IMG/VR virus record: IMGVR_UViG_2695420421_000005 | Length of the DNA stretch: 30,231 nt | DNA from: a virus | Taxonomy: Duplodnaviria > Heunggongvirae > Uroviricota > Caudoviricetes | Direction: 5' to 3' (one strand) | Shown here: positions 2,747 through 20,639 of the stretch, piece by piece | How positions within the stretch are numbered: the stretch's first letter is position 1 | Layout of the letters: every line of letters starts with the position of its first letter | Notes under the pieces: model-generated | Databases searched by the model: none | Told to the model about the DNA's origin: nothing | The model's input: the letters and a program-made list of their open reading frames with translations, nothing else | Position numbers and translations under genes: made by a program

Positions 2747-3048
2747 TGCTACCACCAGAGTTCCTACGCTCTATATGGCGGTAGCCCAGACGGGGGTAGG
2801 AATACCGGTAAACGAAGAAACCGGCCAGCTAAAAGCTGCCCCATCTGAGCCACCATAAATTTGGTGTACGCAGATTTTACACACAAAAAAACACGCAGGC
2901 GCGTGTTGTGCGCTTCATTTACTCGGGTTCCTACGCCCGGCTACGGGATTTACCGTAGCGGAGTAACTTTACCGTCAAAACGACGCGCACGTCAATAATT
3001 TGCAAAGGCATTTTACCCCGTGACCAGTCACGGGGACAGGTGTTTTTA
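2747..3048 (+). ncRNA. Candidate structured noncoding RNA or regulatory leader (strand and ends uncertain)
   Basis: ~300 bp without a credible ORF; several GC-rich hairpins (ACACGC-AGGC-GCGTGT 2891-2906; 7-bp stem 2940-2946/2953-2959); GTTCCTACGC repeated at 2760-2769 and 2927-2936; possible -35 TTGAAC 2714-2719 and -10 TTTAAT 2735-2740 (15-bp spacer, suboptimal); ends at a hairpin plus T-run. Confidence 0.25.
3016..3048 (+). terminator. Hairpin CCCCGTGA-CCAG-TCACGGGG followed by a T-run; possible terminator or protein-binding palindrome
   Basis: 8-bp GC-rich stem 3016-3023/3028-3035 with TTTTT at 3042-3046; the palindrome core recurs inverted at 13753-13768. Confidence 0.4.
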
Positions 3049-3096
3049 TAGTTTGCTTAAACGAGTGTTCAGAAGTTGATCGTTAATCAAAGGCCA

Positions 3097-4140: not shown

Positions 4141-4332
4141 TTACTCCCCGTTCACCGAAAAATCACGATAGAAACGTTTCCACATACGATAAGTCTGCGC
4201 GAGTTGTTCACCACGAAACATCGCCTTCCTGGCCTTCATGTTTTCCTTGTGAGACTTTCGATCTATGAACCAAAACCATTGCTGGAACACACAAAGCAAG
4301 AGACACAAAGATAATATCCACTGATTACCCAT
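4141..4332 (-). CDS. Possible small membrane protein (63 aa) translationally coupled to repA
   Basis: ATG at 4332 overlaps the repA stop; hydrophobic ILSLCLLLCVFQQWFWFI followed by a basic tail; short, so uncertain. Confidence 0.3.
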   Translation of the reverse strand: MGNQWILSLCLLLCVFQQWFWFIDRKSHKENMKARKAMFRGEQLAQTYRMWKRFYRDFSVNGE

Positions 4333-7300
4333 AGAAAGCGCCCTGCTCTTCGTAGCTGCATGAGCTATTCCCGGTAATGTATTCTCGTAACCGCCGCAGT
4401 TCATTGCTGGACAAGTGATCCATGAACTCTGTGAGGTACAGAGATGCAAACGTCATAGCTATGCTGGTTGATGACCATGATGACATAGTGGCCAGCTCCT
4501 CACCGGAAAGCGCACTCATCGCCCAGGACTCAGGAACAGCCACCGGCAATACGGCCAAAGCCTCAGAAATTACTGAATGAGGGGCGTTTTGAACCTGCTC
4601 GTTTGTGGATCGCGTTTTATCATCCATATATATATTGAGATCCAAATCGCGATCCATTTCGATGGCTGTCTTCTCGGCTTTACGCGTTTTTAGGGTTAGG
4701 CCATCTTTCTGACGCTGAACAAGAATATCCAGCATAAATGCCGCTGATTCAGGCTCAACAAAACGCAAGGTTGGACGCTTATCGCCGTCTCTGCCGCGAC
4801 GTTTACCTGTTTTAAGGCCAAGAGAGTCGCAAATGTTTTTAAACAACGCTTCCGGCACTTTAGGCTTCCCTTTTGGCGTCATAAAACCACCAATGTGCAG
4901 AACGTTATTCAACAGGTCACGGCGTTCGGCTGTCATGAGATTATCTCGAGCGAATTTGAGACGCTCCTGAGTCGCCTCGCCGGTCATAGTCTCAGGGTTG
5001 ATACCGCAGTCGATAAAGTACTGCCGGAGAGTTGCTGATTTAAGCGCATAGAAACCGCGCGCCCCGACTTCAACAGTAGGAGTAGCTTTTACCTTGTGAT
5101 CGATTATTCCAGGGAATTTAGTTTTAAAGACATCATCAGCCTGCTCGCGAGTCATCGCGGTCACTACAAAATATTGCCACTGTCCCGCCTGACGGTATGC
5201 GTAGGTAAAATTGATGGCTGCTTCTTCCCGGTCGTAACGACGAGCTGTTACCTCATCTAAAAGCATTGTTTCATAGCGGCGAACTTTGTCTCGAGCACCA
5301 TCGAAATAGAATTTCAGTGTGCCTTCTTCAACCGGTAGTTTCAGTTCGTTTTCAATATCCCAGCGGACAAGTTTTGCCTGTTCTTCAAGCGTCAGCGCGC
5401 GTTTTTTTAGCAGTTCTTCACGCTCTGATTCTTGTGGAGTTTCTGTATTGAGGTGCAGATCCAGTGTCTGTTCCCACACAATATCCCGCGCTTCTTTACG
5501 CAGATCTTTACCGATATCATTCGCAGCATAATCGGTGCCCAGCGGCGATACCTTATAACCGTCGCTGTGCATGATGCAGATCATGTTGCTGGCGTAGTCG
5601 TTACGCGCAGTCGCTTCAATTGCGGCTGCTTTAATTTTCATCCTGGTAAAGTCGGTATTGGCCACCCCCATTGATATACGGTCGCCATCGAAAATGACAT
5701 CCGTCAGTTCACCGTTCATACCTGCGGTAGCAAGCAATGCCTGGGCGAATGCTCGTTCTATTTTTTGCGGGTCAGTTTCACGTTTTGCACGAGCTTTATC
5801 AAAGCCGATAATAAATTCTTTTGCTGTACGGTCGCGGCGTAGCATTTGCACTGCGTCGCTGGGTACAACTTCACCACAGAACATGCCGAAATGACGGTCA
5901 AAATGTTTTTGCTCAATCGACACGCCGGATGAAATAGACGGGCTATAAATCAGGCCGTCGTATTTTTTGACCATCTTTTTCGGTTGATTGGTAAATGCTT
6001 CAACTTCTGGCTCTGGTTTGTTTTTCTGGTTTACACACAGAAATTTCTTACCAGGAAAATGCATTCTCAGGGTGGCTGTCACATCTTCTGCAAAGGTGGA
6101 GCTGTCGGTGGCCAACATGATTTTTTCGCCATCCGATACAGCTTTCACCACCTCGGTCATGATGCGATCTTTTTCTGTATAAAAAACCCGGATTGGCTCA
6201 CCTGTTTCGCGGTTGCGAACATCAACAGGTAATTCAATTACGTGGATCTGCAGCCATGCCGGTAAACCTAGTTCTTCACGGCGTTTCATAGCCAGTTCAG
6301 CCAGGTCAACCAGCAGATCGTTCGCATCAGCATCCACCATGATTGGGTGTTGTTCCGTTCTGGCCAGCGCGTCAATTAGCGTATTGAATACAGCCACCGG
6401 GTTTTCCATAGCCCGACCGGAAAGAACGGCACGTAGCCCTTGTGTGGCCTCGTCAAAGCCAAAATAGTCGTGCTGGCGCATCAACGGTTGCCAGCAGTTT
6501 TTAACAATCGAGTTTATGCAGATGGTCAGTTTACTGGCGTATGGAGCCATTTCCTGATAGCCAGGGTCCTGATAGTGCAGGATATCGGCTTTTACACCTT
6601 TTCCTTCAGTCATCATTTCCCACAGGCCACCAATAAGGGAAACACGGTGAGCTACAGAGATACCGCGTTCTGAGCTATGCATTAACGGTCGTAACAATCC
6701 AGTAGATTTGCCGGAACCCATACCAGCACGAACGATGACGATCCCCTGTAGTGATTGCACGTACTTCAGGACGTCATCGGTCATTACCGAAGTTTCAAAA
6801 CGCTTATAGGTGATATGTTGAGGGCGTTTATTGGGATCAGTTATGCGTTCGCTGAAAGAGCGCGGAGCCTGGGCAATACGGCACTTTTTATTCAGGCGAC
6901 GGGCAATGTGGTCTTTTACCGTAGCGCGATAGATATTTTCCAGCCCCATTTCACGCAGAACGATGCAGAACATGTTAAACAAATCTGACGGACTGTTAGG
7001 AACCGGACAGGTTAGCATGCCAATATCCACCGCTCTCAGCAGCTCTTTGGCAAAAGTACGACGGTTATCCCGCTTAATTGTCTTCAGGCGGTTGAGCGTC
7101 AGAGATAGCAAATCAGTGCCGGTTTTCAGGCGGTTTGCTGTTGCAAATAGTTGACGTGCTGTTTCACGAAGTCCACGTAGTTTGTGCAGGTCGTTGAAGT
7201 CACTGCACTCCATTTGCGGATCGTCTTCAAAAGTTGGATAGACGCAGCGGACATCGTTGAATTTCGATAAGATTTCATAGCCAGTCCGCAGGCCGGTATT

Positions 7301-8320
7301 CCCTTTTCCTTCTGTGGCTGATTTCCGGTCATTATCCAGTGCGCAGGTGATTTTTGCCGCCGGGTACATGTTTACCAGTTGTTCCACAACATGAACCATG
7401 TTGTTAGCGGATACAGCGACAACCACAGCGTCAAAGCGTTTATCTTTTTTCGTGGCAAGCCAGATGGATGCACCAGTAGCAAAACCTTCTGTAACAGCGA
7501 TGTTTTGCGCCCCTTTCAGCTCACCGATAACAAAGCAGGCACCGACGAAATCGCCGCTGGTTACTGCGCTGGTCTGGTATTTCCCACCTTGTTTGTCGAT
7601 TCGCTGCCAACCCACAATACGACCATCGTAACGACCGTCCAGGTGAGCCAGAGGGATAGCCATATATGTGGTTGGCCCCCGGTTCCATTTCGCACTGTCG
7701 TGACTGGTCACGCGACGCACATCACATGAACTAAAAACGTCACGAATACCTTTTTTAATCGCATATGGCCATGAGCCGTCTTCTGCAGGAGCATGTTCCC
7801 ACGCGCTGTGGAATGCCAGCCATCCCAGCAAACGTTCATGGTCCATTTGGTTGTTTTTCAGGTCATTAATTCGTTTTTGTTCTTCACGGCGACGACGTGC
7901 TTCGGCCTGACGTTTTATTCTTGCCCGTTCTTCTTCCGGTTGTGCGACCACGGTCGCATTATTCCGTTGTTGCTCACGGCGATATTCAGAAAACAGGAAG
8001 GAGAAACCGCTCCATGAGCCAGCATCGCTGCCTTTATGGACGAAGTTAATGAACGGGTAATCAATCCCTTTGCTGTGTTCCAGCCGGGAGTAAATTTCTA
8101 CGCGTCCTTTGAGGCTCTTTTCGAGAGCTTCTGGAGATGTTTTATTGTATGAAGAGTAACGCTCAACACCCCCGCGAGGGTTGAGTTGGATGTTGTCGGA
8201 ACAGGCAGACCAGTTGATACCAGCCATCTGTGCCAGCTCGGTTAGTTCATCCCGTGCTGCTTCAATTAGCGAGAACGGATCGCTGCCAAAGCGATCCGCA
8301 TAGAAATCGTTTAATGTCAT
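4325..8320 (-). CDS. repA: Replication protein RepA (primase-helicase), 1331 aa
   Basis: Size and position match N15 RepA (~1320 aa); Walker A motif GMGSGKST in the helicase region; sits between the telN side and the cB immunity region as in N15. Confidence 0.93.
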   Translation of the reverse strand: MTLNDFYADRFGSDPFSLIEAARDELTELAQMAGINWSACSDNIQLNPRGGVERYSSYNKTSPEALEKSLKGRVEIYSRLEHSKGIDYPFINFVHKGSDAGSWSGFSFLFSEYRREQQRNNATVVAQPEEERARIKRQAEARRRREEQKRINDLKNNQMDHERLLGWLAFHSAWEHAPAEDGSWPYAIKKGIRDVFSSCDVRRVTSHDSAKWNRGPTTYMAIPLAHLDGRYDGRIVGWQRIDKQGGKYQTSAVTSGDFVGACFVIGELKGAQNIAVTEGFATGASIWLATKKDKRFDAVVVAVSANNMVHVVEQLVNMYPAAKITCALDNDRKSATEGKGNTGLRTGYEILSKFNDVRCVYPTFEDDPQMECSDFNDLHKLRGLRETARQLFATANRLKTGTDLLSLTLNRLKTIKRDNRRTFAKELLRAVDIGMLTCPVPNSPSDLFNMFCIVLREMGLENIYRATVKDHIARRLNKKCRIAQAPRSFSERITDPNKRPQHITYKRFETSVMTDDVLKYVQSLQGIVIVRAGMGSGKSTGLLRPLMHSSERGISVAHRVSLIGGLWEMMTEGKGVKADILHYQDPGYQEMAPYASKLTICINSIVKNCWQPLMRQHDYFGFDEATQGLRAVLSGRAMENPVAVFNTLIDALARTEQHPIMVDADANDLLVDLAELAMKRREELGLPAWLQIHVIELPVDVRNRETGEPIRVFYTEKDRIMTEVVKAVSDGEKIMLATDSSTFAEDVTATLRMHFPGKKFLCVNQKNKPEPEVEAFTNQPKKMVKKYDGLIYSPSISSGVSIEQKHFDRHFGMFCGEVVPSDAVQMLRRDRTAKEFIIGFDKARAKRETDPQKIERAFAQALLATAGMNGELTDVIFDGDRISMGVANTDFTRMKIKAAAIEATARNDYASNMICIMHSDGYKVSPLGTDYAANDIGKDLRKEARDIVWEQTLDLHLNTETPQESEREELLKKRALTLEEQAKLVRWDIENELKLPVEEGTLKFYFDGARDKVRRYETMLLDEVTARRYDREEAAINFTYAYRQAGQWQYFVVTAMTREQADDVFKTKFPGIIDHKVKATPTVEVGARGFYALKSATLRQYFIDCGINPETMTGEATQERLKFARDNLMTAERRDLLNNVLHIGGFMTPKGKPKVPEALFKNICDSLGLKTGKRRGRDGDKRPTLRFVEPESAAFMLDILVQRQKDGLTLKTRKAEKTAIEMDRDLDLNIYMDDKTRSTNEQVQNAPHSVISEALAVLPVAVPESWAMSALSGEELATMSSWSSTSIAMTFASLYLTEFMDHLSSNELRRLREYITGNSSCSYEEQGAFYG
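7943..7958. repeat. sopC-like centromere-type inverted repeat TGCGACC-AC-GGTCGCA (copy 1, inside repA coding sequence)
   Basis: 7-bp inverted arms with 2-bp spacer, same architecture as the F sopC core TGGGACC-AC-GGTCCCA; five copies in this window. Confidence 0.5.
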
Positions 8321-8471: not shown

Positions 8472-8565
8472 CGTCTTTTTTCTGCTGCTGTAACCTGAGT
8501 CAACCCACAGAACATATGCTCTGCATTAAACCAGATTTACAGCAAACAATAAACCCCGTATTAAG

Positions 8566-9162
8566 TCATCTACCCTCAACCATGAATGATTTGATCGTTC
8601 CGACTATTTGGTGAACAAATTCAAGATCGCTTTTCCTGAAGATGGCGCGTTGTGAATTTGTTCCGTCCAGATAGTAATTTTCATCATCAAAACGGGCCAG
8701 GCGCTGGATGGTGATATTTCCTGCAGTATCACGAACCAGAACATCCTCGCCGGGGACCAGTTCCAGCGCAGAATCGACCAGGAGAAAATCGCCAGGCTGA
8801 TAGTTTCCCTGCGCCAGATTGCTGATAGTTAACGCATAAACAGTATTGCGCTGGCTGATGAATGGCAGGAATCGCTCAGTATTTGGAACCTGTCCTGGCT
8901 TCCACTCTTCATCAGGTCCACTTTCAGTTGTGCCAATAACAGGAATGCGATCAGGGTCATATTCTGTCCCATACAGCACCCAATGCACTGGCTTGCGTAA
9001 GCATTTAGCCAGGGCAATACCTATCTCCAGTGACGGCATTACGTCGCCACGTTCTAAGTTTTGGACGCCTGCAATAGAGATATCGACAGCCTCAGCAACT
9101 TCTCGCAACGTCAGCTTCATCTCTAAACGGCGTGCTTTCAGTCGTTCGCCTCGTGTTTTCAT
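8566..9162 (-). CDS. cB: Prophage repressor CB (CI-like: N-terminal HTH plus C-terminal S24/LexA-like domain), 198 aa
   Basis: N-terminal HTH (LTLREVAEAVDISIAGVQNLERG) and C-terminal peptidase S24-like fold region; divergent from cro across an operator-containing spacer. Confidence 0.9.
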   Translation of the reverse strand: MKTRGERLKARRLEMKLTLREVAEAVDISIAGVQNLERGDVMPSLEIGIALAKCLRKPVHWVLYGTEYDPDRIPVIGTTESGPDEEWKPGQVPNTERFLPFISQRNTVYALTISNLAQGNYQPGDFLLVDSALELVPGEDVLVRDTAGNITIQRLARFDDENYYLDGTNSQRAIFRKSDLEFVHQIVGTIKSFMVEGR

Positions 9163-9184
9163 AGCTTAATCATAAATGATCTTC

Positions 9185-9226
9185 TTATAGCTGGCTATAA
9201 AATTTATTTATTATAGCTGGCTTTAA
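9185..9226. promoter_or_regulatory. Operator region between cB and cro: two 16-bp palindromic sites TTATAGCTGGCTATAA (9185-9200) and TTATAGCTGGCTTTAA (9211-9226)
   Basis: Two near-identical inverted-repeat sites 26 bp apart in the divergent intergenic region; TATAAT at 9242-9247 just upstream of the cro ATG. Confidence 0.6.
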
Positions 9227-9253
9227 TTGTTGTTTATTGTTTATAATAACAAC

Positions 9254-9475
9254 ATGAAACCAGAAGAACTTATTCGCCACTTTGGCAGTGTAGAAAAAGC
9301 AGCGGCAGGGGTAGGTGTAACACCCGGAGCTGTTTACCAATGGTTAACCGCTGGAGAGATTCCTTCATTGCGGCAAAGCGATATTGAAGTTCGTACTGCT
9401 TATAAGCTGAAGAGTGACTTTACAACTCGGCGGGTAAAGCAGTCGATTAAGGAGAGTCGTAAGCGTGGAGCTTGA
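9254..9475 (+). CDS. cro: Cro-like HTH regulator (73 aa from the ATG at 9254)
   Basis: Small basic HTH protein (HFGSVEKAAAGVGVTPGAVYQWL) divergent from the repressor gene; the ORF-track start at 9227 is TTG, the internal ATG is more plausible. Confidence 0.8.
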   Translation: MKPEELIRHFGSVEKAAAGVGVTPGAVYQWLTAGEIPSLRQSDIEVRTAYKLKSDFTTRRVKQSIKESRKRGA

Positions 9476-10428: not shown

Positions 10429-10612
10429 GCAGGGGCCGATGACGCATGATGAAGCAGAGCGTCTTTCAGATAATTATCGGCGGCGTGGTAAGAAAGTTCT
10501 GGTTGTTCGTTCTGATTTTTTAGGTGATGGATATTGCGTTTATGTTCATTTACCTGAATCAGAAAGAACGCCAAAACCATCCAGAACATATCAACAGAAA
10601 ATTTGGGTATAG
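10409..10612 (+). CDS. Hypothetical protein (67 aa)
   Basis: ORF with internal ATG; no clear RBS; no family recognised. Confidence 0.4.
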   Translation: MKITPFKQGPMTHDEAERLSDNYRRRGKKVLVVRSDFLGDGYCVYVHLPESERTPKPSRTYQQKIWV

Positions 10613-13758: not shown

Positions 13759-13768
13759 CTGGTCACGG
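13753..13768. repeat. Palindrome GCGTGACTGGTCACGG, inverted copy of the 3018-3033 palindrome
   Basis: 15 of 16 positions are the reverse complement of the site at 3018-3033; overlaps the stop codon of the upstream gene and precedes the RBS of the next. Confidence 0.5.
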
Positions 13769-13776
13769 AGGGATAA

Positions 13777-14019
13777 ATGGATAAAAAGGCATTGCTTTTT
13801 GAAATGATACGAAAACGGAGCGAAAAGAGCTTTTCTGATGGTGGTGATGGGTTTGTTTTCGCTTCTATGCTTGCTTTTGATGTTGGGTTAAATAGCAGAA
13901 TTGTTAAAAGGATGCTTGATTCTGCTGTCCGTGATGGGCTTTTGGAAGTGGTTGGGCGAGGAGTAGGAAGGGAACATAAGTATCGGACTACAAAGATATT
14001 TAACCAGTTAATCTATTGA
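13777..14019 (+). CDS. Hypothetical protein (80 aa)
   Basis: GGAGGG RBS upstream of ATG; no family recognised. Confidence 0.65.
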   Translation: MDKKALLFEMIRKRSEKSFSDGGDGFVFASMLAFDVGLNSRIVKRMLDSAVRDGLLEVVGRGVGREHKYRTTKIFNQLIY

Positions 14020-14045
14020 AAGTTGGCTATAAAATTTGAGTTTTA

Positions 14046-14065
14046 CCCTGTAATTTTATACAGTA
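14046..14065. promoter_or_regulatory. LexA (SOS) box CCCTGTAATTTTATACAGTA
   Basis: CTGT-N8-ACAG with an AT-rich spacer and ACAGTA end, matching the E. coli LexA consensus; overlaps a possible -10 (TACAGT) 17 bp after TTGAGT; preceded by GGCTATAAAATTT also found at the cB/cro operator. Confidence 0.6.
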
Positions 14066-14087
14066 TCAAATAACCTTTTTTAATTAA

Positions 14088-14306
14088 ATGGTATTAGATT
14101 CAATGACTGAAGCACCTGTATCAACTCTTGAAGAACTCGGATCAAACCTAAAAGACATCGACGCCGTTTTGGATCTGGTTAGCGTTGCTCTGGCTTCTCC
14201 AGAAGCCAGCTTGCATCTTGGCGAGATTTCACGACTTGTTAGTATGTCGCGGGAGATTGCTCAGAATTGCCAACAAGTTATTGCTGTTGAGTGTTTACAT
14301 CATTGA
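14088..14306 (+). CDS. Small acidic protein (72 aa; alternative start at 14103), candidate SOS-regulated antirepressor
   Basis: First ORF downstream of the LexA box; product assignment is inference by analogy with the N15 LexA-controlled antirepressor. Confidence 0.5.
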   Translation: MVLDSMTEAPVSTLEELGSNLKDIDAVLDLVSVALASPEASLHLGEISRLVSMSREIAQNCQQVIAVECLHH

Positions 14307-14349
14307 TATACACCCCGCCCTTCTGGACGGGGTAGCGAAAAGGGTCTAA

Positions 14350-14637
14350 TCAATAGACGGCATTAATATTAATCGTTGCACCGCATGCTTGGGCATATTT
14401 TGATAAAGTTTTCATGCTTGCCCCTAAAGGATTGCTTTCCAGGCGGCTGATAGCTGACGGGCGCAATCCCATTCGTTCAGCCAGAGCTGACTTCGTTAAA
14501 CCTGCTCTTTCCCTCATTTCGTATAACATTTCGACCATCTCCAGCTCTTTATCGGCCTCTTCATATCCTTTGATGGCTTCTGGAGTGTTGAGAAGTTTTT
14601 CTTTTACTTCGTTAAACGGGATGCCTTTCGCTTTCAT
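14350..14637 (-). CDS. HTH XRE-family antitoxin (HigA-like), 95 aa
   Basis: HTH segment LTKSALAERMGLRPSAISRLE; start overlaps the toxin stop by 1 nt; toxin-first gene order typical of higBA. Confidence 0.85.
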   Translation of the reverse strand: MKAKGIPFNEVKEKLLNTPEAIKGYEEADKELEMVEMLYEMRERAGLTKSALAERMGLRPSAISRLESNPLGASMKTLSKYAQACGATININAVY

Positions 14638-14948
14638 CAGTTCATCTCCTTCAGGCGAGTTCTGGCGATTTCGATAGCCTTCACCGGTGTTTTCTGTGTC
14701 TTTTTTACAAATGCATGCAATAGATAAATTTCGTTACCAGTCGCGTAGGCGTACAGCGTTCTTGCGATGTTTTTATCCCCTACTCGTAGTTCAAAAAGCC
14801 CTCCACCTATTACACGGCTATGGGGCATCTTCAGTTTGTTGCCTTCTTTCTCCAGTCGCTCAATTAATCTGGTCATGCGACCTCGCAAATCATCTGGTAG
14901 TTCAAGCAGTTCATCCAGTGCTGCAGGGTGGGTTATCACGTTAAACAT
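14637..14948 (-). CDS. RelE/ParE-superfamily toxin (HigB/Gp49-like), 103 aa
   Basis: Conserved IGGGLFELRVGDKNIARTLYAY core typical of HigB/Gp49-like toxins; GGAGG 9 nt upstream of ATG. Confidence 0.85.
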   Translation of the reverse strand: MFNVITHPAALDELLELPDDLRGRMTRLIERLEKEGNKLKMPHSRVIGGGLFELRVGDKNIARTLYAYATGNEIYLLHAFVKKTQKTPVKAIEIARTRLKEMN

Positions 14949-20581: not shown

Positions 20582-20639
20582 ATATTAATGCAAGTGATAA
20601 ACATTCTCATTTTCTCGGGTCCTTTCCGGCGATCTGACA

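Follow-up and report, generated by a model that had tools for sequence, protein, structure and literature searches.

The two near-identical 16-bp sites found between the divergent cB and cro genes of the DNA analysed here (30,231 nt, referred to below as the window) are, judging by their sequence and position, the O_R3 and O_R2 part of a five-operator CB/Cro switch already characterised in phages N15 and phiKO2. With high confidence, the best explanation of the data is that an N15-type CB/Cro switch is present here and that the sequence at 14017-14032, which resembles an operator and closely precedes a LexA box, is a fortuitous near-match lying outside the conserved circuit. What was computed here for this explanation is the identity and register of the sites with the N15 and phiKO2 operators, the orthology of the proteins and the non-conservation of the sequence at 14017.

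The combination of a telomere palindrome, a TelK protelomerase, RepA, the cB/cro/Q genes and the identities of CB and Cro to their known counterparts identifies the window, on gene content, as an N15-like linear plasmid-prophage (telomere phage). From the window start, the telRL palindrome is followed, in this order, by the protelomerase, RepA (1331 aa), cB, cro and Q. The telRL/telO palindrome CCATTATACGCGCGTATAATGG, which serves telomere resolution, occupies positions 1-45, with its core at 14-29, and Pfam assigned TelK domains to the protelomerase and Phage_antiter_Q to the product of Q. In a sequence search, the immunity region was 98% identical to those of the Escherichia phages PhiR46_1 and YDC107_1, compared to around 77% for N15 and phiKO2, and positions 13760-14320 were 100% identical to the E. 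coli plasmid pE16EC0316-2 (CP088562). This last record (CP088562.1) is deposited as a circular plasmid of 75.5 kb in which two places match the antC query; as N15-like elements are linear and of approximately 46 kb, its deposited form may have come from misassembly, for instance as a partial dimer. A search of the literature for 'PhiR46' gave no match.

The earlier note had described two near-identical palindromic 16-bp sites, with starts 26 bp apart, between cB and cro, and the sequence confirmed this description. Site 1, TTATAGCTGGCTATAA (9185-9200), adjoins cB and consists of 7-bp palindromic arms around a central TG, and site 2, TTATAGCTGGCTTTAA (9211-9226), has a single mismatch to it. 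Both align in register with O_R3 and O_R2 of N15, which have been annotated and footprinted, so their designation as operators was correct and their biology had already been established. Site 1 is identical to O_R3 of N15 (U45242, 887-902) and of phiKO2, in the latter including the flank GGCTATAAAATTTAT, and was invariant in the five of five lineages aligned; the O_R2 of N15 reads TTATACCTAGCTTTAA, 2 nt different from that of the window. The sites are, on the other hand, more than a pair, since the switch is tripartite (O_R3-O_R2-O_R1) and is completed by two O_L sites. The third member, O_R1 (TTATTGTTTATAATAA, 9234-9249), was absent from the earlier note and shows one mismatch to N15 O_R1 (TTATTGATTATAATAA). 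O_R2 is offset from O_R3 by 26 bp and O_R1 lies 23 bp beyond O_R2, both as in N15, in such a way that three sites stand between the divergent cB and cro and two more between cB and repA. The genetic switch of N15 immB was reportedly the subject of Lobocka et al. in 1996, and in the GenBank entry for this region (U45242) five protein_bind sites are assigned to CB.

Counterparts of the known operators were also recovered when a symmetrised position weight matrix (PWM), built from the nine distinct validated operators of N15 and phiKO2, was scanned over 30216 positions of the window. The four best matches were O_R3 (21.95 bits), O_R2 (20.27 bits), O_R1 (14.26 bits) and O_L2 (14.26 bits), in that order. 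The bases T2, A3, T14 and A15, present in every true operator in all the lineages examined, were kept at the three O_R sites and at both O_L sites described below (8537-8552 and 8514-8529). A search with the 16-mer pattern, allowing up to three mismatches, gave five matches in the window against 0.12 expected from shuffled sequences, corresponding to both strands of sites 1 and 2 plus the sequence at 14017-14032. Although the operators came out as its top matches, the PWM is a poor proxy for CB affinity, because the O_R1 of phiKO2 scores lowest yet binds CB best.

On the other side of cB, between its end and repA, an O_L2 orthologue (TTACAGCAAACAATAA, 8537-8552) is in register with TTATAGTCAGCAATAA of N15 and TTATAGGCAGCAATAA of phiKO2, and an O_L1 orthologue (ATATGCTCTGCATTAA, 8514-8529) is in register with N15 O_L1 (GTATAGATCGGATTAA). 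Both are more diverged here: the 14.26 bits of O_L2 compare to 19.8 for its N15 counterpart, and O_L1 reached 5.45 bits versus 11.9 in N15, being degenerate with respect to both N15 and phiKO2 although T-A-N10-T-A is retained. Its position makes O_L1 a putative operator in this lineage, and the control of repA by CB may depend here mainly on O_L2. The replication gene itself, repA (4325..8320, minus strand, 1331 aa in the list of open reading frames), lies downstream of the O_L operators, and in relatives it carries the annotation 'plasmid replication protein, CyRepA1 family' or 'primase'.

The proteins encoded on either side of O_R are those expected for such a switch. The prophage repressor gene cB (8566..9162, minus strand) encodes 198 aa that are 78% identical to N15 CB and 100% identical (198/198 residues) to CB of PhiR46_1, with an N-terminal HTH_3 domain (Pfam, 3.4e-11) and a degenerate S24-like C-terminal domain for which Peptidase_S24 fell below the cutoff; the four N-terminal residues annotated in N15 are missing from it. 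It reads ...ITIQRL... at the position that we take to be that of the catalytic Lys in LexA-type repressors. The lytic repressor gene cro (9254..9475, plus strand) encodes 73 aa with 87% identity to N15 Cro and a P22_Cro domain (Pfam, 1.7e-22).

A sigma-70 consensus scan of positions 9100-9300 called a single promoter, directed towards cB (9169..9197, minus strand), with a predicted -35 TAGCCA (9197-9192) inside O_R3, a 17-bp spacer and a -10 TATGAT (9174-9169), which fits the description of the phiKO2 cB promoter P2 as one that 'borders on O_R3' (PMC4997575). The predicted cro promoter (9218..9247, plus strand), homologous to PR2 of N15, would have its -35 TGGCTT (9218-9223) in O_R2 and its -10 TATAAT (9242-9247) in O_R1, as assigned by homology to the positions annotated in N15 (920-925 and 944-949). 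As the scan called neither this promoter nor that of antC, we infer the hexamers of both from homology to the N15 annotation and from spacing. The ATG of cro (9254) starts 7 nt after the TATAAT in O_R1 with no Shine-Dalgarno sequence between them, as is also the case in N15, so that transcripts from this proximal promoter would be leaderless or nearly so.

How these operators work is known from N15 and phiKO2, in both of which five 16-bp operators share T-A-N10-T-A (Hammerl et al., 2016; PMC4997575). According to the same study, footprints showed binding of N15 CB to all five operators, and in EMSA phiKO2 CB bound its three O_R and both O_L sites as well as the N15 operators, O_R1 being the strongest CB site in phiKO2. 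The minimal CB target was 18 bp, and neither the half-sites of O_R3 nor a variant changed only at its outermost base pairs were bound; O_R3 was the sole site bound by phiKO2 Cro (PMC4997575). In reporter assays, CB repressed the cro promoters, which overlap the operators, and Cro repressed cB through O_R3; in both phages, CB at O_L decreased repA transcription and plasmid copy number (PMC4997575). The authors further described CB as having a 'rather low binding specificity' and as forming tetramers and possibly octamers, and found the RecA-cleavage and catalytic residues to be missing from the CB proteins of N15 and phiKO2 (PMC4997575).

For the window, the binding of CB and Cro and the repression of cro, cB and repA are taken by analogy from this literature, and the circuit would work as follows. 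CB dimers, through their N-terminal HTH domain, would bind the 16-bp TTAT-N8-(A/T)TAA sites of the tripartite O_R and, as these overlap the cro promoters, would keep cro and Q off and thereby lytic growth as well. CB bound to the two O_L sites (8514-8552) before repA would hold down the plasmid copy number, and Cro would switch cB off by binding to O_R3, within which lies the predicted -35 of a cB promoter. As CB apparently lacks the catalytic residues for self-cleavage, induction would proceed through AntC, a small antirepressor with a LexA box (14048-14063) at its promoter.

When compared to known systems, the window shares with N15 immB the gene order and the five 16-bp operators at the same positions and with the same 26- and 23-bp spacings; however, at approximately 77% DNA identity it belongs to a different phage, and N15 has no operator-like sequence upstream of its antC LexA box (the homologous 16-mer scores -6.3 bits). 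It shares with phiKO2 (Hammerl et al., 2016; PMC4997575) the tripartite O_R with two O_L sites, and the EMSA rules of that phage (18-bp target, half-sites unbound, Cro at O_R3 only) should be transferable to it; the host genus is in contrast Klebsiella, and there is no CB-like site upstream of the phiKO2 antC promoter, where the best match was 7.7 bits. The layout also resembles the O_R of lambda, with divergent repressor and cro genes, three tandem pseudo-palindromic operators that overlap the divergent promoters, additional O_L sites further away and, downstream, antitermination by Q. It differs from it in that operators of the CB type are of 16 bp instead of 17 bp, Cro (in phiKO2) binds O_R3 only, the gene under O_L control is one for plasmid replication, and an apparently non-cleavable CB is inactivated by a LexA-controlled AntC, instead of RecA-stimulated autocleavage. 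Signalling of SOS through a small antirepressor gene with a LexA box outside the immunity region is likewise found for Tum of coliphage 186 and for GfoA/GftA of the Gifsy prophages, according to the available part of PMC3121763, although these proteins are unrelated to AntC; that part contains no mention of a prophage repressor controlling the promoter of an antirepressor.

The LexA (SOS) box CTGTAATTTTATACAG (14048-14063) is the sole CTGT-N8-ACAG in the window and overlaps the inferred antC promoter, for which a -35 TTGAGT (14036-14041) and a -10 TACAGT (14059-14064, within the overlap) were proposed by spacing, the sigma-70 consensus scan having called no promoter in 13950-14130. In an alignment, the box and the TTTG-G and TATACAGTAT cores were kept in eight lineages, with one mismatch in the phiKO2 box (ATGT...ACAG), and the invariance of both cores supports the proposed promoter. 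It would serve an antC-like gene (14088..14306, plus strand) whose 72-aa product matched no Pfam family but is 57% identical (E = 9e-27) to that of an unannotated N15 ORF in the same position. The LexA box is thus found at the promoter of a small ORF outside immB with homology to N15 AntC, which is described as an SOS-controlled antirepressor of CB in the available parts of PMC4488713 and PMC3121763. Directly downstream of antC and convergent with it there is a toxin/antitoxin pair on the minus strand (14350-14948), consisting of an HTH antitoxin (14350..14637) and a RelE/ParE-family toxin (14637..14948), both with homologues among N15 genes 48 and 49.

The earlier note had also seen GGCTATAAAATTT recur just upstream of the LexA box, and there are indeed exactly two occurrences, at 9193-9205 and 14025-14037, where 0.05 would be expected at up to one mismatch; the longest exact word shared by both regions is of 14 nt, TGGCTATAAAATTT (14024-14037). 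It had been called a related half-site, which held for the recurrence itself and not for its extent, given that a full 16-mer, TGAAAGTTGGCTATAA (14017-14032), aligns to site 1 with three mismatches. This CB-operator-like 16-mer starts at the TGA stop of a gp47-like ORF and ends 3 bp before the inferred antC -35. It matches O_R3 at 13 of 16 positions, with a perfect right half (ATAA intact) plus five identical flanking bases, whereas its left half, TGAA, carries G2 and A4, so that the outer TTAT is broken, T-A-N10-T-A is not preserved and only the right half is operator-like.

The statistical case for the recurrence beside the LexA box is not a strong one. The 16-mer scored 13.47 bits, sixth among the 30216 positions and just below an unrelated match at 20585 (13.77 bits), and shuffled sequences contained 0.31 matches of that strength per window (around 30 kb), with a probability of 0.27 of finding at least one. 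Moreover, a shared word of 14 nt was equalled or exceeded by about 10% of the 92-bp segments of the window. Validated weak operators score between 11 and 15 bits (11.9 for N15 O_L1, 11.1 for phiKO2 O_R1), a range that includes the 13.47 bits at 14017, and since the PWM is a poor measure of affinity, such a middling score leaves room for weak or cooperative CB binding.

In PhiR46_1 the homologous position reads TGAAAATTGACCGTAA (0.2 bits), and both CP104505 and the E. albertii plasmid are the same as PhiR46_1 there, so that in these relatives the site is absent despite CB proteins 99.5-100% identical to that of the window (100% in PhiR46_1) and the same O_R3 and O_R2. It is equally absent from N15, phiKO2, MStein, pN069_3, NAR688, Kpn74 and 48ST307, a set with two Enterobacter elements and, besides phiKO2, three Klebsiella phages that have an exact O_R3, and also from Kpn_R1, whose locus lacks an exact O_R3 as well; the homologous 16-mers of N15, Enterobacter phage MStein-2023a, E. 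hormaechei pN069_3 and phiKO2 scored between -6 and -9 bits. In the 90 bp upstream of the box, none of nine other lineages contained a match above 8 bits, an exact O_R3 being present in the fetched locus of eight of the nine. The further suggestion, in which the SOS-controlled gene may be another target of CB, thus finds the site missing where the repressor is the same, and finds it with broken outer bases in the window, when half-sites were not bound in the published EMSA (PMC4997575). Control of antC by CB as a general feature is not supported by these sequences, and no report of CB at antC was found in the titles and abstracts of 12 of the 36 matching recent papers on N15-type regulation, or by term in PMC10612081.

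Among E. coli-type loci, sampled from PLSDB and IMG/VR and including the window, the site was present in 14 of 24 (allele A) and absent from the other 10 (allele B), and O_R3 and O_R2 were the same in all those whose fetched sequence reaches the switch. Three sub-lineages of allele A have the same 16-mer in spite of differences directly upstream of it. In the region upstream of antC, GGCTATAA of allele A corresponds to GACCGTAA of allele B; outgroups indicate that TGGCT is ancestral and that allele A carries two derived substitutions (A to G at position 6 and G to A at position 13), both towards the operator consensus; such an outcome is suggestive but, with a chance of about 1 in 9, falls short of significance, in an allele selected for its match. 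More broadly, the antC promoter region (13990-14087) is dimorphic in E. coli N15-like plasmids, and because its alleles are only around 86% identical though cB, O_R3 and O_R2 are the same, the sequences indicate mosaic exchange of a gp47-antC module. A transfer of the word from O_R3 to the antC promoter by gene conversion was considered and rejected, 14 nt being too short for a test and the match being mostly ancestral (TGGCT).

The sequence at 14017-14032 is most probably a near-match that arose by chance in one allele of the antC promoter and is not a conserved part of the circuit, and we infer that CB does not bind there. It could alternatively be a genuine, weak, lineage-specific and recently acquired CB operator that provides, in allele A, a second lock on antC beside LexA, with CB sitting at about -54 to -39 either alone or through cooperativity or looping with CB oligomers bound at O_R or O_L; as AntC inactivates CB, such an arrangement would create a positive feedback that sharpens the commitment to induction. 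The extended match to O_R3, a score like those of validated N15 O_L1 and phiKO2 O_R1, the low specificity and the oligomerisation described for CB (PMC4997575), the invariance within allele A and the direction of its two derived changes all agree with such a role, as does the fact that the site abuts the promoter of the gene for the antagonist of CB. Despite this, we regard it as unlikely. The site is missing from allele B, which has an identical CB, and from every other lineage examined, N15 and phiKO2 included; the invariant T2 of TTAT-N8-ATAA, together with T4, is broken in it, and neither half-sites of O_R3 nor changes of its outer bases allowed binding (PMC4997575). In addition, non-operator matches of 14-16 bits, comparable to it, appear about once per locus of around 13 kb in the relatives, and a shared word of 14 nt stands at roughly the 10% level for the window.

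The shared A/T-rich word TATAAAATTT could also be read as a matter of promoter architecture, that is, as an UP-element-like tract contacting the alpha-CTD of RNA polymerase, its likeness to the O_R3 flank being then a coincidental convergence in A/T-rich promoter DNA. The word directly precedes the inferred -35 TTGAGT, A+T makes up 73-77% of both regions, and this position is A-rich in all lineages, for instance CAAAAAATGG in N15 and AAAAAAGTG in phiKO2. However, the antC hexamers on which this placement depends are themselves predicted, the scan having called no promoter at antC, and the G+C part of the shared word (TGGC) is left unexplained. Such an origin is very improbable, more so than a weak operator. 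A fortuitous near-match in one promoter allele is kept as the preferred reading.

Other operator-like sequences were observed elsewhere. The telRL core TTATACGCGCGTATAA (14-29) obeys TTAT-N8-ATAA and, as a sequence match only, falls within the range of validated weak operators with 11.9 bits; both of its halves are equal to the TTATAC half-site of O_R2 in N15 and phiKO2. The match at 20585-20600, TTAATGCAAGTGATAA, which at approximately 13.8 bits scores higher than the antC-proximal site, is conserved in PhiR46_1 and lies in an intergenic region of around 500 bp upstream of the gene for the terminase small subunit, probably the cos region. At 3017-3061, where an intergenic stretch separates telN from the genes upstream of repA, a hairpin, ccccgtgaccagtcacgggg, is followed by TTATAGTTTGCTTAAA, the latter with 12.6 bits and T14 replaced by A. 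A wider CB regulon comprising 20585, 3046 and the tel palindrome at 14-29 was set aside because the relatives show similar numbers of scattered matches. Finally, in N15 (10571-10586) and in E. hormaechei pN069_3 (6797-6812) a T-A-N10-T-A 16-mer of 11.0 bits, TTATATACAGTATTAA, overlaps the antC LexA box in its right half; the LexA-box region of the window contains no equivalent of it, and the A/T-rich composition of the box probably accounts for the overlap.

Control of the antirepressor promoter by the repressor was the only potentially new idea in this region, and it is not supported. If it were true, antC would be under dual control by LexA and CB in a feedback loop absent from N15, phiKO2 and the sister allele; it would then exemplify a repressor that gates the antirepressor acting on it, for which alleles A and B provide a natural pair with identical CB. 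Beyond annotation, the significance of the results is small: the switch is now located in an N15-like telomere phage-plasmid that is common among clinical E. coli, to which the operator and promoter map of N15 and phiKO2 can be transferred, including O_R3, O_R2, O_R1, O_L1, O_L2 and antC with its LexA box.
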